A DNA stretch of 64,000 nt, from positions 3,016 through 67,015 of the forward strand of contig JBJMXE010000091.1 of the NCBI GenBank assembly GCA_045809745.1, written 5' to 3'. This document shows, piece by piece, positions 1 through 64,000 of this stretch. Source of the stretch: Chthoniobacterales bacterium (GTDB lineage Bacteria; Verrucomicrobiota; Verrucomicrobiia; Chthoniobacterales; UBA10450). Position numbers and translations under genes: made by a program. The notes beneath the pieces were generated by a model that was not told where the DNA came from, searched no databases, and was given only the letters and a program-made list of their open reading frames with translations. The stretch's first letter is position 1; each line of letters begins with the position of its first letter.

Positions 1-342
1 AGGTTCTGCGGCGGCTGAGAGTTTGTCCGATAAACAGAGATCGGAGGCCAAAGCCGCTCGCCAATCTGGCGGAGCTGTCGGCAGTCAGAAGGAAAGCTAA
101 CTTGCGGCAAGGCACCCGGCATTTGCCGGGTGCGGTGGCCGGTGGTGATAATGCCTCCAGCTACGGATGTTCTGATCGATCTGTCTTGCGATGTTGGTTC
201 ATCTGTAGCTGGTCCAGAAGATCACGATCAGGAGCATGATCAGAAGAGATACTGCGTTCATATCTATCCGGTCTGGGGCGCTCTGCGGAGGTCTGATGGG
301 TTCGCAGTTGTTTTTTGCGGCGGATCAAATTACAAAATCGAC

Positions 343-870
343 ATGCTTTCGCCTCAGCCAATCAAAGATCCACCAACCGTAACTGCCGCCGGCGAGCGAC
401 TCGGCACTCGCATCGAAGGAGTTGAGGTCCGCCGCGCGGTGACTCATACCGATGAACGAGGAACGTTGTGCGAAATCTTGAGTCCAGCCTGGAACGTTCA
501 TCCTCTGCCGCTGGTGTATGTTTATCAATTCACGATTCGGCCGGGTAAGGTGAAAGGCTGGCACGTGCATCGACTGCACGACGACCGCATTTTCATCAGC
601 CGGGGCGAAGTCAAAGTGGTGCTTTACGATTCGCGGGTGAACTCGCCCACTCACGGACTGGTTAACGAAATTTTCCGAACCTCGCTTGACCGCGATTTAA
701 TGGTGATTCCGGCGGGAGTGTATCACGCACATCAGAATTGCGGCGCGGAGGATGCCCTCTTCATCAGCATGCCAACGCGGCCTTACAATCATGACGATCC
801 TGACGTCTATCGCCTGCCCGTAAACAACGACGTCATACCGTATCGTTTCGAGAATAGTCTCGGCCGCTAA
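343..870 (+). CDS. dTDP-4-dehydrorhamnose 3,5-epimerase-like cupin (RmlC family)
   Basis: ORF track 130..870. The conserved part begins at ATG 343 (MLSPQPIKDPP). Motifs ERGTLCEI, KGWHVHR, DRIFISRGEVKVVLYDSR and GVYHAHQN fit RmlC-type cupins. The 70 upstream codons look non-coding. Confidence 0.6.
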   Translation: MLSPQPIKDPPTVTAAGERLGTRIEGVEVRRAVTHTDERGTLCEILSPAWNVHPLPLVYVYQFTIRPGKVKGWHVHRLHDDRIFISRGEVKVVLYDSRVNSPTHGLVNEIFRTSLDRDLMVIPAGVYHAHQNCGAEDALFISMPTRPYNHDDPDVYRLPVNNDVIPYRFENSLGR

Positions 871-877
871 GCACAGC

Positions 878-2230
878 ATGGGAATGGATGGTGACACGCC
901 GTTGGTAAGTGTCATCACCGCGACCTACAACTGGAGCAGTGTTCTTCGATATGCGCTTCTTAGCGTCCAGGCGCAGACATTCAGAAACTTCGAGGTACTG
1001 GTCATTGGCGACGGCTGCACTGATGACTCGGAAGACATCGTTAGATCGTTAGGCGATGCTCGTTTTAAATGGGATAATCTACCGGTTAACCACGGCCACC
1101 AGTCTGCTCCCAACAACCGCGGACTGGAGCTCGCTCGCGGTGAATGGATTGCGTATCTCGGTCACGACGATTTGTGGATGCCGAATCATCTGGAGCTTCT
1201 ACTTCGAAAACTCAAGGAAACCCGCGCCGACGTTGGCTTTTCGTTGGCCATGTTGGTCGGAGCACCGGGTTGCGACGGCCGAATGCTGTTTCCAGTTTTT
1301 GAGGAAGGCAAATACCAGCGGGGTTCCGACATTCCCCCGTCGGTCTTGATGCATCGCCGAACCCTGGTGAAGTGGGGTGATTGGCCCGATCACCACCTTA
1401 CGGAGGGCACACCAGAAGGAGTGTTGCTGGCCCGGTTTCACGACGGAGGCGCCGAATTTGCATCGTTGGCCGAAGTCACAGCTTTCAAATTCCCATCATC
1501 CTGGCGCCCGCACTGTTACACCACGCGAAGCTGTGAAGAGCAGGCTGGTTTCTTCAGGAGAATGCACAACGAACCTGATTTCCTGCACCGTCAGCTGATT
1601 GAACTGGGGCTGGCGACGCAACTACTCAAACCTCACACCCGCGTGCCGGCCACGCGGCGCCAGGAAAACCTTCTGCCCGGCGCAGTGATCGAGGGCTATC
1701 GTCGCACCCGCGGCCTAACCGGAGATCCTCCCGAAGAAGGTCTCCCGCGATATGTTACGACGGCGGCGATGGCCGAGATGTTAGCCAAGCTCGTGAACGA
1801 CGAAATCCAGCGGCGACAACTCGATCGTTTCGCGGTCTTCGAAATGTTTTGGGCGGCAGACGGCAGATACAGTGCGGAGCGTTCCACGCGCACCCTTGTT
1901 CCGATCGGACGCTGGGTGCGGATCAGAATTCCGCTCAAGCATACTTCACAGGGCGCACCGCTCCGAATCGATCCGTGCGAACGTCCGGCAATGATCGAAG
2001 TGGCATGGGTTGCTTTGCGTCGGAACGGGTCTGTGAAATGGTGTGCGCGCGGAGCCGGACTCGAGGCTCTGACACTCGGGGGTGATGCTTTCCGGATTGA
2101 CGTCAGACGGGTGTTGAGGATTCGAAGCCGCGGTAACGATCCGGTCTTCTATTTGCCCGCGGATGTGGCCGTTGACGCGCCGCTGGTGTTCGACTGTTGG
2201 TTGAGAATCAGTGGCTTGGCGGAGAATTAA
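878..2230 (+). CDS. family 2 glycosyltransferase with long uncharacterised C-terminal extension
   Basis: N-terminal GT-A signature VSVITATYNWSSVLRYALLSVQAQTFRNFEVLVIGDGCTDDS and a YLGHDD acidic motif. The last ~220 aa have no motif I recognise. Confidence 0.8.
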   Translation: MGMDGDTPLVSVITATYNWSSVLRYALLSVQAQTFRNFEVLVIGDGCTDDSEDIVRSLGDARFKWDNLPVNHGHQSAPNNRGLELARGEWIAYLGHDDLWMPNHLELLLRKLKETRADVGFSLAMLVGAPGCDGRMLFPVFEEGKYQRGSDIPPSVLMHRRTLVKWGDWPDHHLTEGTPEGVLLARFHDGGAEFASLAEVTAFKFPSSWRPHCYTTRSCEEQAGFFRRMHNEPDFLHRQLIELGLATQLLKPHTRVPATRRQENLLPGAVIEGYRRTRGLTGDPPEEGLPRYVTTAAMAEMLAKLVNDEIQRRQLDRFAVFEMFWAADGRYSAERSTRTLVPIGRWVRIRIPLKHTSQGAPLRIDPCERPAMIEVAWVALRRNGSVKWCARGAGLEALTLGGDAFRIDVRRVLRIRSRGNDPVFYLPADVAVDAPLVFDCWLRISGLAEN

Positions 2231-2419
2231 AAACCGCGGGGAAGGTCGCGGAGACGGTAGGACAACAGGCGAAGGGTTAGCTTTGTGATGTCGAGTGTAG
2301 CCGAGACATCTCTTGCTCTATCGCTCGTTAGGCACGCTGGCCGAGTGGCCACAGCACCCGCATCCTTCCCGCCCCAGCCTGCAATTTGCACGAAGTGCGA
2401 TTGTGTTTCTCTTAGGTTA

Positions 2420-3463: not shown

Positions 3464-3468
3464 TTGGG

Positions 3469-5475
3469 TCAGTTAGGCAAAGAAGCGATCGCTCGCTGAA
3501 ATCGCGGGTCTTGTCGAATCGGATCGAGCACTGGATTTAATTTGAGCTGCAAGGCAAACCAGCTCCGCTCTTCTACAACTTTCGGCAACCAGGCCAGCGC
3601 CTGTTCAGTGTCTCCGGTGCGGAGGTAGGCCGAAACGTAATCCCAAGCGGGGAAAAAGCGGCCGGCTGCGCTTTCGGTTTTCAACTTCTCAAGCTGCCTT
3701 TCTCCAAGGGCGCGAACGGCGGCATCGAATCCTGATGATGCGAAAGTTTGCTCAAGAAGATCAGCAAGTGGAGCCCGCCCGGTGAAACGCAATGCTGCCG
3801 CCCATTGGGTGATCGCTTCGTGCGTCATTCCGTTTTGGGCGCACGCGTCTCCGAAGTATTCATGAGCCGCAGGAGACCCCGGCTGTAACTCGAGGGTCTT
3901 GATGTAGCGCTTTATTGCCGCGTCGTAATCGCGCATGAAAAAGAAGACGCGGCCGGCGTGCAAATGCAGGCCGGGAAAGAATGGATCGAGCTCCGTCGCA
4001 TGGTCCATCACAGCGATGCCCTCCTCCGGCCGCCCGTGGAGAACCAGGCACAAACCGTAGTGATGCCTAACGTCCGATAGGTTCGGACTTAGTTCCGCCC
4101 CTCGTTTGAAAGCGCGCTCGGCCGCAGTCCAGTTGCGCTTATAATACACTTCGACGGCAGCCAGTGGGTTGTACGCTTCAGGCAGCAATTCGTCGAGTTC
4201 CAGCGCTCTATTCACCGCCTTCTCCGCCAACGGCCAGTGTTCGGGGTGCAAAACGCCGTTAGCGGCGCCGAACGAATGATAAAGGCTCAGCCCCGCATAA
4301 GCCGCTGCGTAGCTGGGATCGAGTTCGATTGCTTTCTCGAAACTTTCCCGCACCCGCTCGTAGCCAGGCGCGAGAAAATTTCGCCACAAATGCTTGCCTC
4401 TAAGGTAGAACTCATGCGCCTCTCTGTTCTTGGTGGGTTGTGTGGAAATTGCCCGCCGTTCGGCGCCGGTTAGTTCGGCTTTCAGCGCATCCGCAATTTT
4501 GGAAGCAATATCCGTTTCAACTTCAAAGATGTCGGTAAGAGTCCGATCGTACCGTTCCGCCCAGAGGTGAGCGTCGGTTTCAGCATCAATGAGCTGAACA
4601 TGCACCCGAACGCGGTCGCCCGACTTTCGCACGGAGCCTTCCACGATATTCGCGACACCGAGCTGCCTTGCGATCTCCGGCAAATTCTCGGTCACTCCCT
4701 TGAAGCGCAGCGTCGATGTCCGGGAAATGACTTTGAGCTGGTTGATCGTCGACAATCGGCTCAAAAGTTCCTCCTGAATTCCATCGGCGAAATAGGCGTT
4801 CGCTTTGTCTTCGCTAAGATTTTCAAAAGGGAGCACGGCGATCGACTTGCCTAACGGAACTCTCTTCGGTGGGGACGGCTCCTCAGCGGGAGTCAATGAC
4901 TTCAATTTTTGCGGCGGCTCCGGGTTTCCAAACTCTTCCGAATAAAGGTTCACCAAAGCGAGCTTGGTTCCATGTTTCACTTCGCATGTACCGAGATCGT
5001 GCAAGAGCGGCCGCCATCTGGCGTACTGCTCGAGATCGTCCGCGACGCGTTTGGACAACAGAAGGTGACCGGCGTCCCCGCAATCCATGACGCGTTGCGC
5101 GATGTTGATGCCGGCGCCGGCGATGTTTGCCTGCTCGTTCAGGTCAGTGACTTCTTTGATCGGTCCGCTGTGAATCCCGATGCGGGCTTTAAGATCGGGA
5201 TGTTTTCGTAAGGCTTTGCTGACTTCCACCGCGCAACGGACAGGTGCTTCTGGAGTAGTATAAAAAACGAGCGCACCGCCATCGCCGCTGGGCAGGCGCA
5301 GTAACTTGCCGTCTGCTTGCGCAGTTTGGAAAGGCTCGGTGGCGCGAACGATCTCGCGCAGCCGTTCCAGCTGCTCCGCCTGCTCATGGATCATCAGCTT
5401 CGAATAGCCAACGATATCGATAAATAAAACATGCCCGATCTCGAAAGTAACATCGGAAGGAGAAGGGCCGGCCAT
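3469..5475 (-). CDS. class III adenylate/guanylate cyclase fused to TolB-N-like and TPR repeat regions
   Basis: N-terminal cyclase motifs FEIGHVLFIDIVGYSKL, GDGGALVFY and RIGIHSGP. A central SIAVLPFENLSEDK segment is followed by C-terminal TPR-like repeats. Confidence 0.8.
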   Translation of the reverse strand: MAGPSPSDVTFEIGHVLFIDIVGYSKLMIHEQAEQLERLREIVRATEPFQTAQADGKLLRLPSGDGGALVFYTTPEAPVRCAVEVSKALRKHPDLKARIGIHSGPIKEVTDLNEQANIAGAGINIAQRVMDCGDAGHLLLSKRVADDLEQYARWRPLLHDLGTCEVKHGTKLALVNLYSEEFGNPEPPQKLKSLTPAEEPSPPKRVPLGKSIAVLPFENLSEDKANAYFADGIQEELLSRLSTINQLKVISRTSTLRFKGVTENLPEIARQLGVANIVEGSVRKSGDRVRVHVQLIDAETDAHLWAERYDRTLTDIFEVETDIASKIADALKAELTGAERRAISTQPTKNREAHEFYLRGKHLWRNFLAPGYERVRESFEKAIELDPSYAAAYAGLSLYHSFGAANGVLHPEHWPLAEKAVNRALELDELLPEAYNPLAAVEVYYKRNWTAAERAFKRGAELSPNLSDVRHHYGLCLVLHGRPEEGIAVMDHATELDPFFPGLHLHAGRVFFFMRDYDAAIKRYIKTLELQPGSPAAHEYFGDACAQNGMTHEAITQWAAALRFTGRAPLADLLEQTFASSGFDAAVRALGERQLEKLKTESAAGRFFPAWDYVSAYLRTGDTEQALAWLPKVVEERSWFALQLKLNPVLDPIRQDPRFQRAIASLPN

Positions 5476-5549
5476 GATCCTCCCTTTCTTAGCACGAACT
5501 CCAAGCTTGAACGAGCAGTATCAAACCGCCCGTCGACGGCTGGAGGAGC

Positions 5550-7499
5550 CTAGCCGTTGGTAACGCTTTCCCACTCCGTTGTTAACCGGGCAAGGTCATC
5601 CGTCACAACAGCCAGTTCGCGGTTAATTGATACCGCGCGACCACCGGCCTCATAAGCCGCCGGATCTTCTAAGGCCGCAACCAATTCTTTTTGCTGGCCT
5701 TCCAAAGCCGCGATTCTCATCTCCAGCGCGTGAATACGCGCTTCCCGGTCGCGCCGGGCTTTGGCAGCGGCATTCCGTGCCTCGGCTTCCAAACGTTTGT
5801 CCTGTTTCGTCTTCGGAACAGATCGCGGTGCACTTTTAACCTGCTTCTTTGCCGAGATGCCGTTCGAACCGTCGGCTGCTGCGGTAAGACCGACCTGTGC
5901 CGTGACCGCTTTTGATTTTTCAAGGTAGTAGTCGTAATCGCCCGGATAAAAGGTGAGCCGATTATCAGGCGATTGAGGGTCACCGCTTACGCGCAGCACA
6001 CTTGTCGCGATCGCGCGGATGAAATGCACGTCATGGCTGATAAAAATCAGGGTGCCTTGATACTGGGAGAGGGCACCAATCAAGGCATCAATCGATCCCA
6101 CGTCCAGATGGGTCGTCGGCTCGTCCATGAGCAGAACGTTAGGCGGATCGAGCAACAGTTTAACCAGCGCTAGTCGCGATTTTTCTCCGCCGCTGAGCAC
6201 TCGGACGGTTTTGAAGACGTCGTCCCCACGAAACAGGAACGAACCGAGCACAGTGCGGGCGGTCTGCTCTGAGACGGGGTGGATCATGTCTCGACCGCTA
6301 TCGAGAACGGTATGATGAGGATTGAGCATATCGATCCGATTCTGCGAAAAATACCCAACCCGCACGTTGTGGCCGAGCTGACGACTGCCGTTCTGCACCG
6401 GCAACACCCCCGCCAACAACTTCAGCAGAGTTGATTTCCCGGCTCCGTTAGGCCCAACCAGCACGGTGCGTTGTCCGCGTTCAGCCACAAAGTTCAGGTC
6501 GCGGTAGACTTTCAGGTTGCCGTAAGAATGATCGACCTCTTTCAGTGTGATCGCGCGCAGCCCACTGCGCGGCGGCTGCGGAAAGTGGAATTTGATCGTT
6601 TTTGCGTGCGCCACTGGCGCTGCGATCTTCTCCATTCTGTCGATCTGCTTCAGTTTGCTCTGAGCCTGGGAAGCTTTACTGGCCTTGGCCCGGAAGCGGT
6701 CGGCGAAGAGTTGGAGCGAAGCGATCTCTTTCTGCTGATTTTTGTAGGCCGCAGCCTGCTGCTCTTCTCTCGCCGCTTTCTGTTCCACGTAACTGCTCCA
6801 GTTCCCGCGATAGCGAACCAGCTTCGAATGCGCGATTTCAATGATGCTGTCGACCAGTTGGTTCAGAAACTCGCGATCGTGAGAGATCATGACGATCGCT
6901 CCGCGATAACTTTTCAGATACTCCTGAAACCATTGCAGCGACTCGAGATCGAGATGGTTAGTCGGCTCGTCCAGAAGAAGGAGATCCGGCTCCATTACCA
7001 ACAACCGCGCCAGATGAGCGCGCATGATCCAGCCTCCGCTCATTGCCCGGGCCGGCCGATTGAAATCGCTCTCTCGGAATGCCAGGCCGGCAAGCATCCG
7101 CTTCGCCTTCGGCTCCAACTCCCAACCGCCGTGTGATTCAAAAACATGAAGTGCGTCGTTATAAGCGGCTTCGCTGGAACCGCGGCCGGCCTCGTGATTC
7201 TTAATCACCTTCTGCGCATGAAGCAGTTCCGGTGAAACAGCCAGGACGAGCTCCAAAACGGTCTCGTTACCCGCAGCAGCCGTTTCCTGCGGCAGAAAGC
7301 CAACGCTGGCACTTTTTTCGAGACCGATTTTTCCGGCGTCCGGACTGGCGTCGCCGAGAAGTAGCGAGAACAAGGTAGATTTGCCTGAACCGTTCGGACC
7401 GACGAGTCCAATCCGCTCCCCCCGATTCACCTGCAAAGAGACGTCGTCGAATAATCGGCGGCCACCGAAAGACTTACTGAGTTGCGATACCGTGAGCAT
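5550..7499 (-). CDS. ABC-F family ATPase (soluble tandem ABC cassettes)
   Basis: Two Walker A motifs (GPNGSGKST, GPNGAGKST), Walker B LLLLDEPTNHLD and VLLMDEPTTHLD, and signature SGGW/LSGGEK. There are no TM segments. The C-terminus is a basic coiled-coil tail. Confidence 0.9.
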   Translation of the reverse strand: MLTVSQLSKSFGGRRLFDDVSLQVNRGERIGLVGPNGSGKSTLFSLLLGDASPDAGKIGLEKSASVGFLPQETAAAGNETVLELVLAVSPELLHAQKVIKNHEAGRGSSEAAYNDALHVFESHGGWELEPKAKRMLAGLAFRESDFNRPARAMSGGWIMRAHLARLLVMEPDLLLLDEPTNHLDLESLQWFQEYLKSYRGAIVMISHDREFLNQLVDSIIEIAHSKLVRYRGNWSSYVEQKAAREEQQAAAYKNQQKEIASLQLFADRFRAKASKASQAQSKLKQIDRMEKIAAPVAHAKTIKFHFPQPPRSGLRAITLKEVDHSYGNLKVYRDLNFVAERGQRTVLVGPNGAGKSTLLKLLAGVLPVQNGSRQLGHNVRVGYFSQNRIDMLNPHHTVLDSGRDMIHPVSEQTARTVLGSFLFRGDDVFKTVRVLSGGEKSRLALVKLLLDPPNVLLMDEPTTHLDVGSIDALIGALSQYQGTLIFISHDVHFIRAIATSVLRVSGDPQSPDNRLTFYPGDYDYYLEKSKAVTAQVGLTAAADGSNGISAKKQVKSAPRSVPKTKQDKRLEAEARNAAAKARRDREARIHALEMRIAALEGQQKELVAALEDPAAYEAGGRAVSINRELAVVTDDLARLTTEWESVTNG

Positions 7500-7635: not shown

Positions 7636-7965
7636 ATGATCCGATTTTTTCTTCGCATCGTGTGTTGCCTCCTGCTGGTTCCGGTGTTCGCATCGGCTCA
7701 GCCTACGGCTAATAGTCCCGATCCCAAATCCGGCGCCGAAATGACCGGTACCATCAGAGAGTACACCGCTGGAAATACGTTGGTGCTTGAGACTCTCGCT
7801 CCGAACGAACCGGTGCAGTTCAAATTGGGCAAAGACGTGACCTATGCTGATACCGACGGCAAGACGATCGAAGCCGCCGGCCTAACAACGAATCGCAGGG
7901 TCAGGGTTCATTATCACAAAGTCGGGGGCGATAACGTGGCCGACAAAATCAGCCTGGTGGAATAG
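7636..7965 (+). CDS. small secreted hypothetical protein
   Basis: ORF 7381..7965. The plausible start is ATG 7636, which gives the signal peptide MIRFFLRIVCCLLLVPVFASAQ. The upstream part overlaps the ABC-F gene on the other strand. Confidence 0.5.
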   Translation: MIRFFLRIVCCLLLVPVFASAQPTANSPDPKSGAEMTGTIREYTAGNTLVLETLAPNEPVQFKLGKDVTYADTDGKTIEAAGLTTNRRVRVHYHKVGGDNVADKISLVE

Positions 7966-8577: not shown

Positions 8578-8627
8578 GTCGACAGCTCGAGGGTTGAGGA
8601 CCGAAGCGTGGAGCGGTCCGGTGCCGC

Positions 8628-37437: not shown

Positions 37438-37827
37438 CAATCTCTTAGTGCGATACTGAGTTGAAAATCTGCGGCTCACCGCAACAACGCAGCGAGATTC
37501 GGGGTCAGGACGAGTGTCAGTATTCTGCGCAGCATGAACGCGCCAGATCAAGGCAAAACCGGCCATTTTAGCCGGTACCAGCCTGCAAACGCGGCGCAGG
37601 CGCCTTGCACTTCGGGCTCTAGAGCGGCTCGCTGCCATTATGCAACGAGCGCGCTCAGAGTGTCCGGACTTCCTAGCGTGGGCTTCCAGCCTATGTTTTG
37701 CCCCGACCATCGGCAAAGTGCCGATGCCACAACTTTAGGATGAACAGAACGCGAACGTTCGCGCGCTGACCATCAGCAGGCTTTGACCGTTCCAGGAAAA
37801 TCCTGACGGTCCTCCCGGCCGATGCGG

Positions 37828-40632: not shown

Positions 40633-40673
40633 CGGTCGGTCGATCCGACGTTCCTGCGATTGGCCTAACAGCC

Positions 40674-54031: not shown

Positions 54032-54457
54032 CTATTGCCACCGGACAAAGGTCCACACCACGAAGGCAGACACCAACGCCGCAATCGAGGTTACCAGGCC
54101 TAACGAGCGGGACCGGATCCATCCGCTCAACCCGAGGCTGAGCAGGTTTGAGTAGATGCCGAGGCCGAACGACACAAACAGAGTGCGCTGGGCCCAGGGG
54201 AGAAACTCCGGCGCCGCGAATCCCCGGGGCGCGCTCGGGTTCAACACCAGGCCAACGAGCGTGCCCGCAATAACCGCGATCATGAAGGACGCTGATGCCA
54301 CGGCCGCAGCACCCGCCGCCAAACCGACATGTCGCCGCGGACTTTGCGATTGAAGCAGGATTCCGAGGAACGTAGCGGCGAAGCCGCCAAGAAACGCGCT
54401 GACCGAGGCGAGTTGCCTCGCCAGTTCGCCGTAAAATTCCAGATCGCCTGGCTTCAT
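54032..54457 (-). CDS. hypothetical integral membrane protein
   Basis: Four hydrophobic helices. No motif recognised. Confidence 0.5.
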   Translation of the reverse strand: MKPGDLEFYGELARQLASVSAFLGGFAATFLGILLQSQSPRRHVGLAAGAAAVASASFMIAVIAGTLVGLVLNPSAPRGFAAPEFLPWAQRTLFVSFGLGIYSNLLSLGLSGWIRSRSLGLVTSIAALVSAFVVWTFVRWQ

Positions 54458-55677: not shown

Positions 55678-57546
55678 TTAGCTGCGACGATCAGCGATAG
55701 CAGAATTGGGCTTCTCCGACCCCGCCGTGTTCGCTGCCTGCTGTTTGATCCATCGCTCCACGCGCTCCTGCAGTAGGTCCAGTGGCATCGCTCCGCCATT
55801 CAGGATCTCGTCGTGAAACGCTTTGATGTCGAACTTTGCTCCGAGCTGCTGTTTCGCTTCGTCCCGCAGCTTGCGGATCGTGAGCTGGCCTATCTTGTAA
55901 GCGAGAGCCTGTCCCGGCCAGGCAATGTAACGGTCTGCCTCAGTCTGGGCCATCGCATCGTTCACGTCATTGGCGTGCATATAATCGATCACCTTTTCGC
56001 GGCTCCAATTCTTATCGTGGATGCCGGTATCCACCACCAGCCTAACGGCGCGGAAGAGTTCGGAGTTCAGCCGTCCGTAATCAGAGACCGGCTCCTGGTA
56101 GAAACCAATCTCTTTACCCAAATCTTCGGCATAAAGTGCCCAGCCTTCCGCGTAGGCGGAATAAAAGCCGTGCAACCGAAATTTTGGAATGTCGGGCAGC
56201 GTCTGGGCGATGCTGATCTGCATGTGATGGCCCGGCACACCTTCATGATAAGCGACGGCTTCGTCATCAACCAGAGTACGCTTCGTCGGGTCAGCCACCG
56301 CCACCACCACGCGCCCCGCTCTTTTGCCGTCGGGTGTGCCGGCGACGTAATGCGTTGCCGCGGCTTTGTTGAAGTCAGGGATCGGTTCAACTGTCACCGG
56401 CGCCTTCGGCAGAAGTCCGAACAATTGCGGCAGCTTCGGCTCCATTTGGTGAATGTATTTCTCGAAATCTTCAACGATCTGCCGTTCGCTTTTGGGCTTC
56501 CACTTCGGATCGCCGTTGATGGCTGCGCGGAACGTGGCGAGATCCTTCTGTCCATTCGCCTGCGCTAGTTTCGTCATCTCGCCGGTGATGCGCTCGACCT
56601 CCTTTAATCCAATCTCGTGGACCTCGGCGGGGGTTACGTTGATCGTGGTCATCGTTTTCACCGCTTCGGCGTAGCGACGCTTGCCGTCCGCCAGACTCTC
56701 GATCGAGAGATCCTTACGTCCTTTCGCGTCGTACTCGGTCCGCAGAAACTCGGCGAACTTTCGGTAGGCCGGGAAAACCTCATCGTTAACCGTCTTTGTA
56801 ATCTCGTCGGTTAGGCGTTTTTTATTTTCCTCTGAAAAGTCCGCCGGGAATTTTTTGAGAGGCAGAAGGAACGGGTTCGCAGCGATAATTCCGTCGCATT
56901 GTCCGGGCAGCTTATCGAGCACCAGTTCCGGCGGCATCAGTTTGTCTTTTTCGCCCTGCCGCAGCACCTCCGTTGTCTGATCGAGCGCCCGGGGGATTTG
57001 ATGCAGCCGTGAAATGTAATCCTGGTAGTGCGCCACCGAATCGAACGGCACGCTGAGCGGCATGTCGGCGAGTCCGGTGTGCACACCCCGCTGCTGGTTT
57101 ATCGGCATCTCGTAGTTTTTGAGATCGTAGTTTACGTCCTCACGTTCCAGTTGACGCTGCATGAGCTGATGACTCAGCAGGTCCTTCTCGCTCATTCCAT
57201 CCGTCGGGATGGCTTTGAGGCGTTTTAAAAACTCATCGGCTTCGGCGTGCTGGCGCTCGATTTCCTTGAGTGAGTACTGCGCCAGCAGCCCGTTGTAGCG
57301 GTAGTCACCAAACGATGTTGCTCGCTCGGGTGCATTCTTCAGTCCCGTCTCATAAAATTCATCGAACAATGCATTCTGTTTGGCCACGCGCTCTTCCAGA
57401 GGCGCCGGTTGGGTGAAGCCGGAAAACGGGACGGCTATAATGAATGCCCAGACGAGGGAGCTGGTTCGGTAGCCGCGACATGGACGGGAAGCAGTTGGCG
57501 CTGCCGGTCTGAGCGTCGGCCTGCGCCGATAATCGATTTTTCGCAT
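55678..57546 (-). CDS. DUF885-family protein (putative metallopeptidase-like)
   Basis: HEGVPGHHMQ motif, the length, and a signal-anchor N-terminus are all typical of DUF885. Confidence 0.8.
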   Translation of the reverse strand: MRKIDYRRRPTLRPAAPTASRPCRGYRTSSLVWAFIIAVPFSGFTQPAPLEERVAKQNALFDEFYETGLKNAPERATSFGDYRYNGLLAQYSLKEIERQHAEADEFLKRLKAIPTDGMSEKDLLSHQLMQRQLEREDVNYDLKNYEMPINQQRGVHTGLADMPLSVPFDSVAHYQDYISRLHQIPRALDQTTEVLRQGEKDKLMPPELVLDKLPGQCDGIIAANPFLLPLKKFPADFSEENKKRLTDEITKTVNDEVFPAYRKFAEFLRTEYDAKGRKDLSIESLADGKRRYAEAVKTMTTINVTPAEVHEIGLKEVERITGEMTKLAQANGQKDLATFRAAINGDPKWKPKSERQIVEDFEKYIHQMEPKLPQLFGLLPKAPVTVEPIPDFNKAAATHYVAGTPDGKRAGRVVVAVADPTKRTLVDDEAVAYHEGVPGHHMQISIAQTLPDIPKFRLHGFYSAYAEGWALYAEDLGKEIGFYQEPVSDYGRLNSELFRAVRLVVDTGIHDKNWSREKVIDYMHANDVNDAMAQTEADRYIAWPGQALAYKIGQLTIRKLRDEAKQQLGAKFDIKAFHDEILNGGAMPLDLLQERVERWIKQQAANTAGSEKPNSAIADRRS

Positions 57547-57625: not shown

Positions 57626-60040
57626 TCACTCTTCCCGCATCAGTTCGGTCGGATCGACGGCAAGGGCTCGCAATGCCGGGATAGCGGAGGCGGCAATGCC
57701 GAGCAGCGCCATCGTTAGTACCGCCCCGATCACCACCGTAGGCTCCCGTGAATTCGCCTGATACACTATTTGTCCGAGTATCCGACCGGCGAAGAAGCCT
57801 AACAACACTCCCACCAACGATCCTGTGCCGAGAAGCATGATCGGTCTTCCGACAGCTGCCCTAATCACGTGCTTTGCGCGGGCGCCAAGTGCAACACGGA
57901 TACCGAGCTCCTTCATTCTTCGACTTACGTTGTAAGCCGCCATGCCGAAGATGCCGGTTACCGCCAGCATCGCGGCCAGCCCTCCCATGATACCCATTGC
58001 TGTTGTCGATGCGCGTGCGGGGAATAGCGCGTTCACCCCGCTGAGCACATCCTCCCACCTCTGCACCGTGACGATCGCATTCGGCTCCAGCGAAGTCAGG
58101 GTGCGTTCAAGCGTTGGCGCGAATTCGTTCTCCGGGCGTGGCGATCGGACGACAAACATGATTGAGCTCCGCTCGTTCTGCGCCAACGGCAGAAACACCG
58201 CCGGCTGGGCTGGCTCCAGCATGTTGTGATACTTGCCGTCCTCCACCACGCCGATCACTTCCGTTAATCGCTCGGAGACGATGAACCGCTGTCCGATCGC
58301 CGCCGCTTCGCCCCACATCTTCCGCGCGAAGGTCTGATTCACCACCGCGACGTGTGGTTTCTCGCTGTTATCATGCCAGGAGACATCGCGGCCGTTCAGG
58401 AGCCGCGTGCCGGCAGCCTCGAAGTATCCGGGCGATATGGTGAAGACATACGGCGAAAGGACAGCATTGTTCGGCGTCAACTCTGTCGTCCCAGGCGCGA
58501 ATATCGGAATGCCACGCAATCCTCCGTTGAAGGGCCCCCGGCTGACCGTGCCCACCGCCGTCACGCCAGAAATGTTTCGCAGCGCGTCGATCATTGCTCG
58601 CTTTCTGTCAAGCGGCACGTCGCCCGCCACCTCAGTTAGGTCCAGGTCGGCCAGCAAGGCGCCTTGCGGTTGGAAACCTAGCGGAGCGTGCAGCATGCGC
58701 ACCATCCCGCGAAGGGCGACGAACGAGGCCATGACCAGCAGCGTGCAAAGTGCAATCTGAGCGCCTAACAACAGGTCCCGCAGGGCGAGCCGGCGCATGG
58801 GCGTGGCACCGACCGATCCGCTCTTCATCGCCTGCAACGGGCTGGTCTGCCAGACGTGCCGCGCCGGGATCAGGCCGAACAGCAGCCCGCTGGTGATAGT
58901 TAAGATCAGGGCCGCCAGGTAGACACTGGCATCCGCACTCACTGCGGTACGGCCATACGGGGACTGCCATTGGTTCAGCAACCCTAACAGCACGCGTGCC
59001 GCCAATAGCCCCGCGGCTCCGCCGATCAGCGACACCACCATTGCCTCCGTCATGAGCTGTCGCACAACCCGCCAACGGCTCGCCCCGATGGCAACACGCA
59101 ACGCGAGCTCCCTGCTCCGATCCGCCGCGCGCGCGGCAAAAAGGCTCGCCAGATTAGCGCATGCCGCAGCCAGCACCAGCAGAGCGAATCCGGTGATGCT
59201 CCAAAGAAATCCGCGAATGACGTCACCGTTGTCGGCGAAGAGGCCGGGCCGGACCAGTCGCAGCGGCATTCCCGTATCTGTCTTCGGATGCTCCAGTGCT
59301 AACTGCGCGGCGATTGTGCTGAGATTTTCCGCAGCCTGTTCGGGCGTGACGCTGGGCTTCAGCCGTCCAAGAACCGTTAGGGCGTTCGATGTCCGGCTCT
59401 GCAGAGACTCCGGCCCGAAGTAATTCACGATCGGAATCCAAAAGTCGGGCCACTCGAATTTGTCGGTGCCATGGAACCTCGCCGGCGCGACGCCGATTAT
59501 GGTGAAGGAATCTTTGCCGAGGGTGACGGCGGTGCCGACGACGCCCGGATCTGCGTTGAAGACGCTTTGCCACAGCTGATGACTCAAGACCAAGTACGGC
59601 GCCGAACCCGTGCCATGCTCGTCCGCCTCGTCGATGAACCGTCCGACCTCCGCTGGCACACCCAACAGTTCGAAATAATTGCCGGTTACCGCGTGACCGT
59701 AGACACTTTTCACGGTGCTGCCCCAGTGCAGTCTCGCCTGACAATATCCGTAAAAGCCGGCCATGCGGCTGAAGGTGGTGTTACGCTGCCGAATGTCTTG
59801 AAACGCCGGATAGGACGTCGTCAGCAGCTTGAAACTTGTCCACGGCTGGAGCCGAAGTTGGTAAAGGTTGTCTGGATCCTTTACGTCGACGGGACGCAGC
59901 AGCACCGCATTCAGCACTCCGAACACGACGATGTTCGCGCCAATCGCCAGCATCAAAGTGAGCACCGCTACCACAGTGAATGCCGGAGATTTCCACAAGA
60001 CGCGCAGCGCATAACGAATGTCGAGCAGCAGGTCGTTCAT
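57626..60040 (-). CDS. duplicated FtsX/MacB-type ABC permease (ADOP-like orphan permease)
   Basis: The N-terminus is DIRYALRVLWKSPAFTVVAVLTLMLAIGAN. Two permease halves each have a periplasmic domain plus a 4-TM FtsX module. There is no adjacent ATPase gene. Confidence 0.85.
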   Translation of the reverse strand: MNDLLLDIRYALRVLWKSPAFTVVAVLTLMLAIGANIVVFGVLNAVLLRPVDVKDPDNLYQLRLQPWTSFKLLTTSYPAFQDIRQRNTTFSRMAGFYGYCQARLHWGSTVKSVYGHAVTGNYFELLGVPAEVGRFIDEADEHGTGSAPYLVLSHQLWQSVFNADPGVVGTAVTLGKDSFTIIGVAPARFHGTDKFEWPDFWIPIVNYFGPESLQSRTSNALTVLGRLKPSVTPEQAAENLSTIAAQLALEHPKTDTGMPLRLVRPGLFADNGDVIRGFLWSITGFALLVLAAACANLASLFAARAADRSRELALRVAIGASRWRVVRQLMTEAMVVSLIGGAAGLLAARVLLGLLNQWQSPYGRTAVSADASVYLAALILTITSGLLFGLIPARHVWQTSPLQAMKSGSVGATPMRRLALRDLLLGAQIALCTLLVMASFVALRGMVRMLHAPLGFQPQGALLADLDLTEVAGDVPLDRKRAMIDALRNISGVTAVGTVSRGPFNGGLRGIPIFAPGTTELTPNNAVLSPYVFTISPGYFEAAGTRLLNGRDVSWHDNSEKPHVAVVNQTFARKMWGEAAAIGQRFIVSERLTEVIGVVEDGKYHNMLEPAQPAVFLPLAQNERSSIMFVVRSPRPENEFAPTLERTLTSLEPNAIVTVQRWEDVLSGVNALFPARASTTAMGIMGGLAAMLAVTGIFGMAAYNVSRRMKELGIRVALGARAKHVIRAAVGRPIMLLGTGSLVGVLLGFFAGRILGQIVYQANSREPTVVIGAVLTMALLGIAASAIPALRALAVDPTELMREE

Positions 60041-61755: not shown

Positions 61756-62580
61756 GTGAAGTTATCCATTGCCGACAAGCGGAAAGGATTTCGGAAACTA
61801 CATGAATCGGGTTGCTTTGTGTTGCCAAACCCCTGGGATATCGGCAGTGCGCGTTATCTGGCTTCGTTAGGCTTCAAAGCGATCGCCAGCACATCTGCGG
61901 GATTCGCGTTCTCCCGCGGTTTGCCTGATAACGCGGTCGGTCGCGACGCGGTGCTCGCTCATCTACGGGAACTCGTCGCGTCAACAGATCTGCCGGTAAA
62001 TGCTGATTTCGAGAACGGATTTGCCGACGATCCAGAGGAGCTTGCTGAAAACGTGCGGCTGGCGATTGAGACCGGCATCGCTGGACTTTCGATTGAAGAT
62101 TCCACCGGAAAATCGGCCGATCCGTTGTACACAATTGAGCATGGTACGAATCGAATTCGAACTGCCCGGCGAGCGATCGATAAGAGCGGATCGGATGTCG
62201 TTCTGGTAGGTCGCGCTGAATGTTACCTGGTGGGTACGGAGGATATATCCGAGACGACGCGCCGACTGAAAGCGTATGCCGAGGCCGGGGCCGATTGCCT
62301 TTACGCCCCTGGCATCGACAGCCTCGAACAAGTGGCCGCAATCGTGGACGCCGTGGAACCGAAACCGGTAAACGTCCTGATCAGCGGTCCCGGCAGCCTG
62401 ACGATTGCAGATGTTGCGGGCGTTGGAGTGAGGCGCGTCAGTGTTGGTGGCGCGCTGGCCCGCGCCGCATGGGGAGGATTTATTCGCGCCGCGAAAGAGC
62501 TGGCGGAGCAGGGGACGTTTGGCGGGTTTGCCGGGGCGGCTGGCCACGGGGAGTTAACCAGTTTTTTTCGGAAGCAGTGA
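61756..62580 (+). CDS. isocitrate lyase / PEP mutase superfamily enzyme (2-methylisocitrate lyase-like)
   Basis: GTG start. Motifs LPNPWDIGSARYLASLGFKAIASTSAG and GLSIEDS are present. Confidence 0.8.
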   Translation: MKLSIADKRKGFRKLHESGCFVLPNPWDIGSARYLASLGFKAIASTSAGFAFSRGLPDNAVGRDAVLAHLRELVASTDLPVNADFENGFADDPEELAENVRLAIETGIAGLSIEDSTGKSADPLYTIEHGTNRIRTARRAIDKSGSDVVLVGRAECYLVGTEDISETTRRLKAYAEAGADCLYAPGIDSLEQVAAIVDAVEPKPVNVLISGPGSLTIADVAGVGVRRVSVGGALARAAWGGFIRAAKELAEQGTFGGFAGAAGHGELTSFFRKQ

Positions 62581-62668: not shown

Positions 62669-63137
62669 ATGGCAGCGCGGAACAGTGATGTTGAATCTAT
62701 CGATGCGATTATTACCGCCGCTTATGAAGCGGTGTCTGGTAAAGCCGGCGAAAAGCGCGATTGGGATCGGTCACGCGCCTTATTCGCGCCCGGGGCGCGG
62801 CTGATCCCCACCAGCAAACAGGCGGGTGTCAACGTACCTGATAGCGAACCGCCACAGCCGCTCGACGTGGAAGGTTATATTGCGCGAGTCAGCGGATTTT
62901 TTTGAGCAGGTTGGCTTTTACGAGCAGGAAGTGGCGCGACGGACGGAGCAATTCGGCCGGATTGCTCACGTGTTCAGCACATATGATTCACGCCATGATC
63001 CTTCCGATTCGGAGCCGTTCATGCGAGGAATTAACAGCATTCAGCTGTATCACGACGGCGAGAGGTGGTGGATCATTTCGATCTACTGGCAGCAGGAGAA
63101 CCGGGAGACGCCGATTCCGGAGAAGTATCTTCGGTAG
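62669..63137 (+). pseudogene. NTF2-fold protein gene split by a 1-nt frameshift in a T7 run
   Basis: ORF 62669..62905 ends ...[15 protein letters not shown] 62826..63137 (frame +1) continues ..[12 protein letters not shown].... Both read through the same T7 run at 62897..62903. Removing one T gives one continuous ~155-aa protein. Confidence 0.65.
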
Positions 63138-63172
63138 ATTCACGCAGTTAGGCCATCTCGGCTGCGCGGCCA

Positions 63173-63197
63173 TTGTAGGGCGTCTGTGTCAGACGCC
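63173..63197 (+). repeat. GTAG-headed REP-like hairpin (class GGCGTCTG)
   Basis: TTGTAGGGCGTCTGTGTCAGACGCC is identical to the reverse complement of 31600..31624. Confidence 0.8.
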
Positions 63198-63329
63198 CGC
63201 CGATGAGGATGATTGCTGCGATCGGGCAGAGTCCACGATCACCAACCATGAAACGGGAGAGGATGGGGATACGATCATGATCAGGAGCAAGATCATGATT
63301 AGGATTAGGAAACAGCGGGCGGGGGCGGA

Positions 63330-64000
63330 TCAATCGCCGGTGGCGGAATACAGATCCAGATACTTTATTCCCGAACCGGTGTTGAAGATTACCACGCGAT
63401 CTGTCGCTGAAATCTCATCGCGCAACAGAGGCAAGGCAGCAAAACAAGCGGCACCTTCCGGAGCGACGAATAAGCCTTCTGCCGCGCCGACCTGCCGTGT
63501 TACCTCAATCATCTTGTCATCATCGATCGCGATTGCGCCGCCGCCGGACTCGCGCAAAATCCGGAGCATTAGAAAATCGGCGACCGCTTTCGGCACTCGC
63601 AATCCCGAAGCGACGGTATGAGCGTTGGGGAATTCGGTGGCACTTGTTTCGTTAGCCTCGAATGCCCGCACAATCGGCGCGCAACCACTGGCTTGGATGG
63701 AAAACATACGTGGGCGTTTCGATCCGATCCATCCCATTGCCTCCATCTCATCGAACGCTTTCCACATTCCGATCAGGCCGGTGCCGCCGCCCGTTGGATA
63801 AAGGATCATGTCAGGCAACTGCCAGCGCATTTGCTCGGCCAGTTCGTAGCCCAGCGTTTTCTTCCCCTCGAGACGATAAGGCTCCTTCAGAGTGGACATG
63901 TCGAACCAGCCTTCATCCGATTTGCGCCGGCCGATCTCCGCTCCGCAGTCAGTGATGAGTCCGTCGATTAACGTCACATGCGCTCCGAACTCGCGGCACT
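63330..64000 (-). CDS. thrC: threonine synthase, C-terminal part (5' end beyond window)
   Basis: PLP-fold motifs [26 protein letters not shown] and FNTGSGIKY. The reading frame stays open to the window edge. Confidence 0.8.

Follow-up and report, generated by a model that had tools for sequence, protein, structure and literature searches.

The window, a 64-kb stretch of DNA analysed at its full length, comes from a Chthoniobacterales genome, that of an Udaeobacter-like soil bacterium. The word GTTAGGC/GCCTAAC is dispersed over both of its strands. An automated search of the whole window found 44 copies, 20 of GTTAGGC and 24 of GCCTAAC (Table 1); every start position listed in a preliminary description of this DNA proved exact. 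Four gene ends had been placed at copies (3472, 8626, 13330 and 37827), and all four lie in or beside one. The pair at 40663 and 40785 was considered as an attC site but is unconvincing, with a terminal stem of 10 bp only.

Table 1. Copies of the word in the window, with the two preceding bases in lower case or, for full 9-mers, as TCGTTAGGC
Position	Strand	Sequence	Context
1048..1054	+	TCGTTAGGC	
1713..1719	-	cgGTTAGGC	
2327..2333	+	TCGTTAGGC	
3472..3478	+	caGTTAGGC	adjoins end of gene 3469-5475(-)
4065..4071	-	acGTTAGGC	
4849..4855	-	ccGTTAGGC	
6138..6144	+	acGTTAGGC	ABC-F gene; GCC-CCT-AAC-G at conserved PPN
6447..6453	+	ccGTTAGGC	ABC-F gene; CCT-AAC, synonymous, at GPNG of Walker A
7880..7886	-	ttGTTAGGC	
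8626..8632	-	agGTTAGGC	TAG within is stop codon of gene 8628-9794(-)
12391..12397	-	aaGTTAGGC	
13330..13336	-	ttGTTAGGC	stop of gene 11864-13342(+) 4 nt further on
14253..14259	-	cgGTTAGGC	
15027..15033	+	caGTTAGGC	T-run follows; shares bases with one terminator-like hairpin tail
20117..20123	-	TCGTTAGGC	
23034..23040	-	taGTTAGGC	
23620..23626	-	ttGTTAGGC	
26381..26387	+	tgGTTAGGC	
26509..26515	-	cgGTTAGGC	
27264..27270	+	ttGTTAGGC	
27822..27828	+	TCGTTAGGC	
29621..29627	-	gtGTTAGGC	
30395..30401	+	gcGTTAGGC	
31255..31261	+	ttGTTAGGC	
31643..31649	+	TCGTTAGGC	
33023..33029	-	TCGTTAGGC	
33974..33980	-	ttGTTAGGC	
35422..35428	+	TCGTTAGGC	
35812..35818	-	aaGTTAGGC	
37827..37833	+	cgGTTAGGC	TTA within is TAA stop of ORF 37828-38418(-)
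40663..40669	-	ctGTTAGGC	left arm of GCCTAAC...GTTAGGC pair, 122 nt apart
40785..40791	+	ctGTTAGGC	right arm of pair begun at 40663
41325..41331	+	cgGTTAGGC	
45824..45830	+	acGTTAGGC	
46403..46409	-	tgGTTAGGC	
47323..47329	-	TCGTTAGGC	
53489..53495	-	tgGTTAGGC	
54098..54104	-	TCGTTAGGC	
56040..56046	-	ccGTTAGGC	
56810..56816	+	cgGTTAGGC	followed by T-run
57797..57803	-	ttGTTAGGC	
58763..58769	-	ttGTTAGGC	
61866..61872	+	TCGTTAGGC	
63147..63153	+	caGTTAGGC	

Excess of the word and constraint on DNA

A roughly five-fold excess over about 8 expected copies had been claimed, and it stands. The expectation is 8.4 under a zero-order and 6.9 under a third-order Markov model; dinucleotide-preserving shuffles (n=100) gave 4.4 +/- 2.0 copies with a maximum of 11, and none reached 44. 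The excess is thus 5- to 10-fold, and GTTAGGC ranks first among over-represented 7-mers in the window. Earlier control counts were identical on recount (NTTAGG: G=33, C=3, A=4, T=2; CCTAAN: C=32, G=1, T=3, A=3), and the one-off word GTTAGC/GCTAAC occurs 34 times (about 33 given before). Of the 9-mer TCGTTAGGC there are 10 copies, with 0.4-0.6 expected, in agreement with the earlier 10 against about 0.5. Copies are spaced in a Poisson-like manner (gap CV 0.94 vs 0.98 for random placement) and unordered in orientation (23 runs vs 22.8 expected), and their 20:24 strand split has no polarity. A maximal-order Markov model expects 36 copies where 44 are observed; this expectation is high because the motif itself inflates its sub-words.

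By gene strand, 19 copies are sense, 20 antisense and five intergenic or at gene edges, a slight revision of the earlier 18 and 22. All four stop-free frames are occupied, as described before (TTA-GGC 13, GTT-AGG 6, CCT-AAC 11, CTA-AC 9). Of the rare codons noted earlier, 13 of 115 TTA, 9 of 93 CTA and 6 of 83 AGG in the window fall in copies. Synonymous CCT-AAC in the conserved Walker A GPNG motif creates copies independently in different lineages, and so do K>R changes. Across 185 sites, information content is limited to nine positions, and flanks show no conservation over +/-25 nt. It is the word as DNA that is constrained, rather than the protein, as the preliminary description had proposed: both strands, all stop-free frames and intergenic DNA are used, spacing is Poisson-like, copies are gained independently by synonymous change, and flanks are unconserved.

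Individual sites turn over. Orthologous copies are kept in 38 of 96 cases, with 25 expected for generic 7-mers; maintenance is statistical rather than site-specific. The one-off neighbours HTTAGGC are depleted (5 observed vs 32 expected). Overlap with terminator-like sites is at chance level, close pairs have no orientation preference (convergent/divergent/direct = 12/11/13), and the non-coding fraction of copies is proportional to non-coding sequence.

Distribution in two phyla

Within Chthoniobacterales, the word is limited to one monophyletic clade. In strongly enriched relatives (99 kb), TCGTTAGGC reaches 53 copies where 0.6 are expected, a 91-fold excess; its one-mismatch forms are enriched 3-4-fold, while two-mismatch forms are not enriched. 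The true unit is this 9-mer, with GTTAGGC as its core. A compact form of 8-9 bp is C/TC-GTTAGGC. Enrichment ranges from 30- to 90-fold and density from 0.7 to 1.2 per kb. Relatives that lack the phenomenon have 14 copies in 346 kb against 14.4 expected. Because these sit at expectation, general composition does not account for the excess, which is specific to the lineage. Conservation in close relatives holds for one clade and fails for the window's nearest relatives (L020, L042, L037 and L012), which carry GATCGACA instead at the same density (up to 10 per 10 kb; 22 vs 1.2 expected in L020). GATCGACA is unrelated in sequence to GTTAGGC; a different word has taken over in these sister lineages.

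A second, unrelated phylum is also involved: CGTTAGGC is hyper-abundant in some soil Gemmatimonadaceae. The 9-mer unit, the second phylum and the other word of the sister lineages all go beyond the preliminary description. The 1.1-Mb plasmid of the cultured Gemmatirosa kalamazoonensis has 892 copies (456:436 by strand), about one per kb, spaced a little more evenly than a Poisson process would give (CV 0.85). Every replicon sampled bears the word, at similar density: the whole of plasmid 1, 22 kb of the chromosome and 50 kb of plasmid 2. Distribution within the family is patchy: 26 copies per 21 kb in L209, but 3 and 2 in L205 and L204, whose RecA is 91-92% identical to that of L142. A phage-like contig, with helicase, exonuclease, polymerase and primase genes of its own, bears the word at host density, with 16 copies where 0.8 would be expected in 14.8 kb. 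An artefact of composition, codon usage or assembly, to which the high maximal-order expectation might point, has next to no probability and is already refuted by the shuffles, the word-free relatives and the use of all frames; the same word also appears in independent assemblies from different projects and in the finished PacBio genome of the cultured strain.

Strand-symmetric sites dispersed at about one per kb, with gaps a little more even than random and similar density across replicons, are what binding by an abundant chromosome-organising protein under weak selection per site might leave. This possibility, raised already in the preliminary description, is very improbable. Single sites turn over nearly as fast as generic sequence, and unless there is a drive, it is implausible that selection on each site would be strong enough to impose rare codons at thousands of positions; neither the quick replacement by an unrelated word in sisters nor the copies on the phage-like contig would be expected.

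Candidate readers of the word

A mobile modification or mismatch-nicking system could bias repair toward the word in any replicating DNA, as for HIP1; an example would be an m5C methyltransferase paired with a nuclease of the very-short-patch type. Such a drive would affect chromosome, megaplasmids and phage equally, and mobile systems that swap specificity fit the patchiness among close relatives, the two phyla and the switch to an unrelated word. Depletion is seen for GTTAAGC and ATTAGGC, both transition neighbours; however, it extends to all three HTTAGGC neighbours, not the transition product alone. The E. coli Dcm/Vsr effect is small, and a T:G repair bias at a single position is unable to yield 30-90-fold enrichment of a 9-mer. 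HIP1 is palindromic, whereas this word is not. DNA methyltransferase, restriction and Vsr-type domains were not found in the window, where two methyltransferase matches are generic small-molecule/UbiE-type domains. The methylome check proposed earlier was negative: the word is not among the m6A or m4C motifs of G. kalamazoonensis (PMC3974934), although that SMRT methylome would miss m5C. A HIP1-like drive is considered unlikely.

Somewhat less doubtful is a Chi-like self-marker, read by a host RecBCD/AddAB or other DNA-scanning nuclease that spares and recombines DNA bearing it. Word-bearing alleles would then gain a transmission advantage in any DNA exchange, and phages would be selected to mimic the word. 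The host density of the phage-like contig's replication module and the presence of the word on all sampled G. kalamazoonensis replicons are consistent with this. Chi sequences of different genera are mutually unrelated, and the unrelated words of sister lineages resemble this diversity. There is also a weak excess on the G-rich strand (57-59% of copies per GC-skew segment of the plasmid) and a local orientation excess in L047 (6:20) and L031 (1:10). However, the orientation bias of E. coli Chi is roughly 75%; the whole 1.1-Mb plasmid, at 51:49, has no Chi- or KOPS-like polarity, and neither has the window. The Gemmatimonadaceae bias is largely predicted by codon compatibility, as 75% of copies are sense, mostly xxG-TTA-GGC. 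An enrichment of 30-90-fold at one per kb for a 9-mer is far beyond known Chi sites, and a specificity shared by two phyla would require nuclease transfer.

The word had been thought to match no described motif. No published account of GTTAGGC as a genome-wide word was found in the literature, but in integrons GTTAGGC/GCCTAAC is the archetypal recombination sequence: it matches the canonical core site, GTTRRRY, and its inverse, RYYYAAC. The G. kalamazoonensis plasmid carries a real integron, with a 57-cassette attC array and intI. Both of its R-box arms are CGTTAGGC/GCCTAACG; reading the R'' arm in reverse gives GATTCGTTAGGC, within which lies the verrucomicrobial 9-mer. R boxes of other soil integrons match the same sequence. 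Among the 16 GTTRRRY variants on the plasmid, GTTAGGC is enriched 8.9-fold and GTTGAAC 4.7-fold, and the remaining 14 do not exceed expectation. Integrases place cassettes at GWT sites in genomes (10.1101/2022.09.11.507474), and the copies could be attG- or attI-like R boxes made or kept by an integron integrase or related tyrosine recombinase. This is distinctly improbable. Four IntI-bearing soil genomes have no copies in 40 kb of non-array flank and no genome-wide enrichment, which indicates that an integron alone is insufficient. No intI was found in the window or the verrucomicrobial loci. Copies are solitary, are born by point substitution in conserved genes and lack attC structure; base conversion without cassette insertion matches no known integrase reaction, and thousands of good intragenic insertion sites ought to harm. 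Nor is GATCGACA an R box. Identity with the attC R box may be coincidence, or may reflect a reader tuned to cassette DNA.

A possible self-recognition word and DNA uptake sequences

The explanation tentatively favoured, from comparison of sequences, is that the word may be a lineage-specific self-recognition word upheld by some drive that is tied to the exchange of DNA, much as for uptake sequences. We infer both the existence of such a drive and its coupling to uptake or recombination. A genome-wide substitution drive, not the function of single copies, would hold the word at about one per kb. When cells of the lineage exchange DNA, one sequence-specific step would be the likeliest driver: fragments bearing the word might be taken up preferentially, like the DUS/USS of Neisseriaceae and Pasteurellaceae, or might be favoured in survival and recombination. 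Alleles acquiring the word would then spread, and near-matches would turn into matches. The occurrence of one word in two phyla implies that its reader moved horizontally, or convergence.

Natural transformation is known to supply chromosomal integrons with cassettes (PMC12614218), a link between cassettes and transformation that is in line with this explanation. No competence genes are present in the window. In a motif scan of the fetched loci, T2SSE/PilB/PilT-type ATPase Walker A had no match, and prepilin-like matches occur only in L046 and L049, both outside the word-bearing clade. One word-bearing Gemmatimonadaceae contig encodes a type IVa pilus PilT ATPase; PilT is found in word-free relatives too.

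Known uptake sequences are 9-10 nt long, have hundreds to thousands of copies and form dialects, and about half of DUS/USS copies lie in terminators or inverted pairs (10.1101/2025.10.24.684340). The likeness to uptake sequences noted in the preliminary description holds in part. Unlike DUS/USS, the word has no preference for terminators or inverted pairs, and the host density of the phage-like contig argues against a pure transformation drive. DUS/USS dialects differ by few bases, whereas the GATCGACA of sister lineages is unrelated to the word. The word resembles DUS/USS in its length (9 nt), density (about one per kb), fold-enrichment, strand symmetry and lineage specificity.

Abundance and placement of the word in the window

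GTTAGGC and its reverse complement GCCTAAC occur 44 times in the 64-kb window, 20 times on the plus strand and 24 times on the minus strand. A pattern search returned exactly the positions that had been listed by hand in the preliminary description. Dinucleotide-preserving shuffles of the window (n=100) give 4.4 +/- 2.0 copies, with a maximum of 11, and a 3rd-order Markov model gives 6.9; the over-representation claimed earlier therefore stands, and the word ranks first among over-represented 7-mers. A maximal-order Markov model expects 36 copies; this is not counter-evidence, since the 6-mers are themselves composed of the motif. The internal controls are reproduced on recounting: NTTAGG (G=33, C=3, A=4, T=2), CCTAAN (C=32, other bases 1-3 each), the one-off word GTTAGC/GCTAAC (34, claimed as about 33) and the extended 9-mer form TCGTTAGGC (10 copies). 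Calculated by us from the counts in the window, the prefix TC and the suffix GC each contribute enrichment of their own on either side of a core GTTAG. The spacing of copies is close to Poisson (gap CV 0.94), and their orientations follow no order, with 23 runs where 22.8 are expected. A compositional, codon or assembly artefact is scarcely credible as the cause of the excess.

Half-words that have the left part TCGTTA and lack the GGC end are 3-6-fold enriched in the window (TCGTTA 68 times, TCGTTAAC 13 times, the palindrome CGTTAACG 16 times, GTCGTTA 27 times). The density of CGTTA is 2.3/kb, about three times the 0.8/kb of relatives in which GTTAGGC sits at chance count. Short (TA)4-5 runs are also present, with 4 matches against 0.06 expected; two of the three runs are intergenic (Table).

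By a simple gene call, the copies divide into 19 in sense, 20 in antisense and 5 that lie between genes or at the edge of one. Each of the four frames free of stop codons is occupied (TTA-GGC 13, GTT-AGG 6, CCT-AAC 11, CTA-AC 9). The earlier observation that both orientations and two frames of each are used stands, while its tally of 18 sense and 22 antisense is replaced by these figures. The rare codons TTA (13/115), CTA (9/93) and AGG (6/83) are found inside copies, as had been reported, and so are 11 of 140 CCT codons. The use of every stop-free frame, of both strands and of intergenic DNA rules out codon or dipeptide bias as the cause and bears out the proposal that selection is on the DNA word; the constraint acts on DNA, not protein.

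The genes of the window have ordinary metabolic, transport and envelope functions according to Pfam, which was applied to 49 of the 52 called ORFs (the other three encode 91-126 aa). No competence, recombination/recombinase or restriction domains were found among these 49, and two methyltransferase matches are to generic small-molecule or UbiE-type domains. There is no association of the word with terminators (25 terminator-like sites, 22.7 by chance) and no preference for inverted pairs; pairs less than 200 bp apart are 12 convergent, 11 divergent and 13 direct. A terminator or hairpin role is ruled out by these counts. Non-coding DNA contains the fraction of copies that its length predicts.

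Features with coordinates in the window, on G. kalamazoonensis plasmid 1 (NZ_CP007129.1) and on other contigs
Feature	Replicon or contig	Position	Strand	Remarks
ABC-F protein gene	window	5550-7499	-	used for phylogenetic placement
(TA)4-5 run	window	9927-9934		in intergenic gap 9795-9983
(TA)4-5 run	window	25313-25320		in intergenic gap 25280-25484
(TA)4-5 run	window	45174-45183
GCCTAAC/GTTAGGC pair	window	40663-40791		sole pair in R''..R' orientation; just a 10-bp terminal stem, z = -2.8; overlaps ORF end; not convincing as attC
Complete sedentary integron	plasmid 1	810,283-857,810		L229:10283 to L230:7810 in the fetched pieces
attC array	plasmid 1	~810-856 kb		~57 co-oriented elements
Integron integrase gene	plasmid 1	856,827-857,810	-	TIGR02249, 423 bits (cutoff 265); adjoins array
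Short tandem repeats based on the word	L142; L108 (Gemmatimonadaceae contigs)	840-930; 1866-1910		18-nt unit (GTC)GTTAGGCGCAGGCAAG; 12-nt unit GTTAGGCCGCTC x4
attC-like hairpin	L109 (soil metagenome contig, 60% G+C)	910-999		90 nt; R'' GCCTAAC, R' GTTAGGC
Near-perfect palindrome	L118 (soil metagenome contig, 62% G+C)	2164-2309		146 nt; bounded by GCCTAACGAG...CTCGTTAGGC
Phage-like contig	L358 (IMG/VR viral contig, 67% G+C)	1-14800		16 copies of the word

Distribution in Chthoniobacterales and Gemmatimonadaceae

The ABC-F protein encoded in the window places it in Verrucomicrobiota, Chthoniobacterales, near Candidatus Udaeobacter; no identical protein is on record, and the best match has 85% identity and comes from soil MAGs. 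The word has a very patchy distribution over the 80 related loci that were fetched. It is strongest in five loci of relatives (L047, with 26 copies in 22 kb, L043, L016, L017 and L031), where the unit is the 9-mer TCGTTAGGC; 99 kb of strong relatives contain 53 copies of it against 0.6 expected. Enrichment of the exact 9-mer is 91-fold in the strong loci, 30-fold in intermediate loci and 28-fold in the window. Its one-mismatch neighbours are 2- to 4-fold enriched and its two-mismatch neighbours are not enriched. The independent effects of prefix and suffix in the window suggest that the word there is the same but that its drive is weaker or decaying, this drive being a proposed genome-wide substitution bias that would create or keep the word. 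In the ABC-F tree the word is restricted to one monophyletic clade, with graded strength inside it. Pooled relatives without the phenomenon, comprising relatives outside the clade and four word-poor clade members, have 14 copies in 346 kb (14.4 expected). Conservation among close relatives, which the preliminary description had raised, is thus found in one Chthoniobacterales clade; it is patchy there, and the nearest relatives have little or none of the word.

Among 185 pooled sites, information is limited to T(-2), C(-1) and GTTAGGC. The flanks are unconserved within +/-25 nt, which rules out a mobile or miniature repeat element. The top words of five other loci (L046, L026, L072, L008, L071) do have conserved flanks; these are longer repeats and a different phenomenon. 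A codon alignment of ABC-F genes contains independent synonymous gains of CCT-AAC in the invariant Walker-A GPNG in different lineages, together with occasional conservative replacements such as K>R, which yields GTT-AGG. In alignable relatives, 38 of 96 copies are conserved, while 25 would be expected for generic 7-mers, so individual copies are protected only slightly; the abundance of the word is maintained statistically. Some one-off neighbours are depleted (HTTAGGC 5 against 32 expected, GTTAAGC 4 against 13) and variants at weak positions of the word are enriched, as a genome-wide drive toward the word would predict.

Local orientation excesses are seen in L047 (6:20) and L031 (1:10). 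They have no tie to gene strand, follow GC skew inconsistently and contrast with the balanced count on the whole G. kalamazoonensis plasmid. The 4.4-kb contig L118 has 13 copies of the 9-mer, and its palindrome (Table) may be an inverted-repeat element with the word at both termini.

The nearest relatives by ABC-F identity (L029, L042, L034, L037, L020) have little or no GTTAGGC. These five loci, and also L006, carry another word instead, GATCGACA, with the upstream preference CA[A/G]; in the 21.9 kb of L020 it is scattered over both strands in 22 copies, where 1.2 are expected. One locus, L012, has both words. In the window GATCGACA is at chance level (4 copies, 3.2 expected). The clade thus seems to have a general system that maintains one or another 8-9-mer at about 1/kb and whose specificity has switched. 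Because the switch separates close relatives, phylogenetic profiling can be used to find the gene responsible.

The word also occurs in another phylum. When metagenomes were scanned for copies in close direct pairs, many of the matches were chance or tandem-repeat ones in low-GC contigs; the scan also gave soil contigs of 67-75% G+C with scattered GTTAGGC at 1.5-2 per kb, which are from Gemmatimonadaceae. RecA of one such contig (L142) is 89-97% identical to Gemmatimonadaceae proteins, and the best match of a hydantoinase on another (L097) is Gemmatirosa kalamazoonensis (73%). The syntenic RecA region has 26 copies in 21 kb in L209, with 3 copies in L205 and 2 in L204 (RecA 91-92% identical to L142). 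PilT is present on L142; a T2SSE-family ATPase gene lies at the same place in word-free relatives. A 22-kb sample of the chromosome of the cultured G. kalamazoonensis KBS708 contains 18 copies, 17 of them the octamer CGTTAGGC, against 0.5 expected; Roseisolibacter agri has no copies. Some Gemmatimonadaceae contigs contain short tandem repeats based on the word (Table).

Plasmid 1 of KBS708 (1,106,233 bp, joined from 23 pieces) was read whole. The word is its top 7-mer, with 892 copies at 0.81 per kb, 456:436 by strand (51:49). C(-1) is present in 87% of copies; the +1 position is G or A, with T nearly absent, and +3 is C in 60%. The flanks thus contrast between the phyla, TC- in the verrucomicrobial form and C- with R at +1 in Gemmatimonadaceae. 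Copies outside called ORFs make up 31%, compared with 28% of the sequence. The dominant frames are sense xxG-TTA-GGC (291) and antisense xxG-CCT-AAC (164), and 54 copies supply an ORF stop codon. Gaps have a CV of 0.85 and there are no large deserts, only two gaps exceeding 7 kb (3.1 expected). Orientation tracks three GC-skew segments weakly, with 57-59% of copies on the G-rich strand. Of genic copies in Gemmatimonadaceae, 75% are sense; by our own rough estimate, dipeptides that can accommodate the word are frequent enough to give about this share, which is hence no sign of replication polarity. Such polarity was rejected because skew and orientation agree inconsistently in the loci and the bias per segment of the whole plasmid is no larger than 57-59%. 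Outside the integron of plasmid 1, GTTGAAC/GTTCAAC occurs 162 times against a zero-order expectation of 35, and several 10-mers such as AGGACTGAAG (81 copies) suggest other repeat families there.

A scan of viral contigs gave mostly chance matches. The exception is L358, with 16 copies on both strands in 14.8 kb (0.8 expected); copies lie inside helicase, exonuclease, DNA polymerase and primase genes (PHROGs). A phage-like replicon is thus at host word density, and L358 is probably a Gemmatimonadaceae phage that mirrors its host's word. Phages can mimic host Chi. A Chi-like self-marker, read after DNA entry, would account for this contig and for the presence of the word on every replicon sampled; it sits badly with the near-absent polarity and the extreme enrichment, and is rather unlikely.

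HIP1, the cyanobacterial highly iterated palindrome GCGATCGC, is linked to cognate methyltransferases; its function is unexplained. A similar drive on GTTAGGC, coupled to modification or repair, would suit the mobility and the switching of the word. Against it, the SMRT methylome of KBS708 has m6A motifs at RGATCY, ATGCAC and CCAGN7TCA only and none at GTTAGGC (PMC3974934). Since the word is not in this published motif list, it is no m6A or m4C target there. Modification, which the preliminary description had suggested looking for in methylome data, is thus not reported for the word in data of a type that cannot show m5C (PMC3974934). A single-base repair bias would moreover be unable to raise a 9-mer to such enrichment, and a drive of this kind is judged less likely still than a Chi-like marker.

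The word and the integron core site

GTTAGGC and GCCTAAC form the archetypal pair of integron recombination sites in attC and attI, fitting exactly the consensus of the core (GTTRRRY) and that of the inverse core (RYYYAAC). The earlier statement that no motif of this sequence has been described is hence not upheld; the pair fits the integron sites and is found in real attC arrays. The sole relevant literature match for the word is an integron paper.

Plasmid 1 contains a complete sedentary integron (Table). Its elements are about 105 nt each and 350-1400 bp apart, with small ORFs between them. Each reads GCCTAAC-GAATCGTTGCAGCTGACGGAGGCGCG...CGCGCCTCCGCAGCTGAACTCCAG-CGTTAGGC in ORF sense, with R'' GCCTAACG and R' CGTTAGGC; they are textbook attC sites. 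The integrase gene is oriented the same way as the cassettes. Both R-box arms are the genome-wide octamer, and the R'' arm read backwards (GATTCGTTAGGC) includes the verrucomicrobial 9-mer. The word is about 2-3-fold rarer in cassette interiors than on the remaining plasmid (~12-20 copies, 33 expected).

Integrases of this type are widespread among soil phyla. Four other IntI-bearing contigs (Minicystis sp., Myxococcota, and three high-GC contigs) have GCCTAAC...GTTAGGC pairs about 80 nt apart on the array side and no copies in 40 kb of non-array flanks (10 kb each). The word is a generic R box of soil attC sites. The word-free flanks rule out the integron as a sufficient cause; an integron alone does not yield the genome-wide excess. 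An integrase-linked origin of the word would explain the striking identity with the integron core, but it is without a mechanism, has failed this test of sufficiency and leaves GATCGACA unexplained; it is improbable.

The window has the identical GCCTAAC/GTTAGGC pair, yet its copies differ from integron sites. They are solitary, lie inside housekeeping genes and arise by substitution; they have no L boxes, hairpins or arrays and are not attC sites, which are hairpin-forming imperfect palindromes of about 60-140 nt (R''-L''...L'-R'). No intI gene or cassette array was found in the window (Pfam, 49 of 52 ORFs). The inner stem of the hairpin on L109 (Table), AAGCTGGCGGCGCGCG, is related to the attC family of G. 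kalamazoonensis. This contig has a G+C content typical of the verrucomicrobial clade.

Integron integrases can insert cassettes at genomic GWT sites, and attG needs GWT alone (10.1101/2022.09.11.507474). Natural transformation provides single-stranded DNA for the recruitment of cassettes by chromosomal integrons (PMC12614218). It is conceivable, at rather long odds, that the protein reading the word is tuned to the attC R box, that CGTTAGGC serves as an uptake or self-recognition word, and that the two phyla converged on this specificity or exchanged it. DNA acquisition would then be directly coupled to cassette capture. With core sites seeded on both strands at about one per gene, the genomes could offer a landscape in which cassettes insert or even originate, and GATCGACA of the sister lineages would be a sign that one specificity can be exchanged for another. 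The identity of the word with the integron core, of which no mention was found in the literature, bears on the movement of cassettes between soil bacteria and on the origin of attC.

Explanations and comparison with known genomic words

Hyper-abundant self-words with a shown function or mechanism are known from two proteobacterial families only, as the DUS of Neisseriaceae and the USS of Pasteurellaceae, together called DUES (10.1101/2025.10.24.684340). The best explanation for GTTAGGC, held tentatively, would be a drive of the same type, in which word-bearing DNA gains a transmission advantage during exchange, as with uptake sequences. It is favoured because a non-palindromic 9-mer, enriched 30-90-fold at about one copy per kb, balanced between strands, generated by substitution, turning over and lineage-specific, matches DUS/USS. 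Binding by a nucleoid protein would be another reading of the word, and a very doubtful one. The explanations are ranked, in falling order, as uptake-type drive, Chi-like marker, HIP1-like drive, integrase-linked origin, nucleoid-protein word and artefact.

The likeness to uptake sequences that was remarked on in the preliminary description is supported in part. Like DUS/USS, the word is non-palindromic, 9-10 nt long and tens- to hundred-fold enriched, and its density of about one copy per kb implies thousands per genome. Strands are equally used, genic copies occur in every tolerated frame despite rare codons, one-mismatch forms are enriched, and the word is lineage-specific. The likeness fails in placement. 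A large share of DUS/USS copies lies in terminators, often as inverted pairs (10.1101/2025.10.24.684340), whereas GTTAGGC is enriched in neither, which weakens the uptake reading. It is weakened too by the phage-like contig at host density, and by a replacement word, GATCGACA, that is unrelated in sequence, unlike the dialects of DUS/USS. DUS/USS are depleted in newly acquired DNA and in phages; for GTTAGGC the picture is mixed, with cassette interiors poorer in the word but L358 at host density and plasmid 1 free of large deserts. Verrucomicrobiota and Gemmatimonadota are, moreover, phyla without known competence or a known receptor such as the ComP-type minor pilin of uptake-sequence systems. 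Motif searches for competence and pilin genes in the fetched loci gave only two prepilin-like matches (L046 and L049), both outside the word-bearing clade. Literature searches found nothing on competence in Udaeobacter, on uptake sequences outside Neisseriaceae and Pasteurellaceae, on GTTAGGC as a genome-wide word, or on hyper-abundant words of any kind from Verrucomicrobiota or Gemmatimonadota; the word also goes unmentioned in the genome paper of G. kalamazoonensis (PMC3974934).

If the uptake reading is true, this would be a third family of hyper-abundant self-words with a function. The presence of the word in Udaeobacter-like Verrucomicrobiota and in Gemmatimonadaceae, both abundant and hardly cultured soil groups, points to a step of sequence-specific DNA exchange or genome maintenance that has so far gone unrecognised. 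As strong markers of lineage, the words can serve in binning and in assigning plasmids and phages to hosts, and KBS708 is a cultured system with a finished genome for direct tests.

Comparison with HIP1 gives shared length (8-9 bp), density (about 1/kb), use of all frames and intergenic DNA, presence on chromosome and plasmids, and lineage specificity. Unlike HIP1, GTTAGGC is asymmetric and not self-complementary, and it has no m6A or m4C site in KBS708 (PMC3974934). Chi, the site recognised by RecBCD or AddAB, is likewise short, over-represented and lineage-specific, and the word shares with it carriage by a phage-like contig. The polarity of Chi and KOPS is matched only weakly, at 51:49 overall and 57-59% per GC-skew segment on plasmid 1, and not at all in the window; enrichment and density are far above those of known Chi. 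As a hyper-abundant genomic word, GTTAGGC is of a known kind; what is new is the phyla concerned, the same word in two phyla, the switching between sister lineages and the identity with the integron core.
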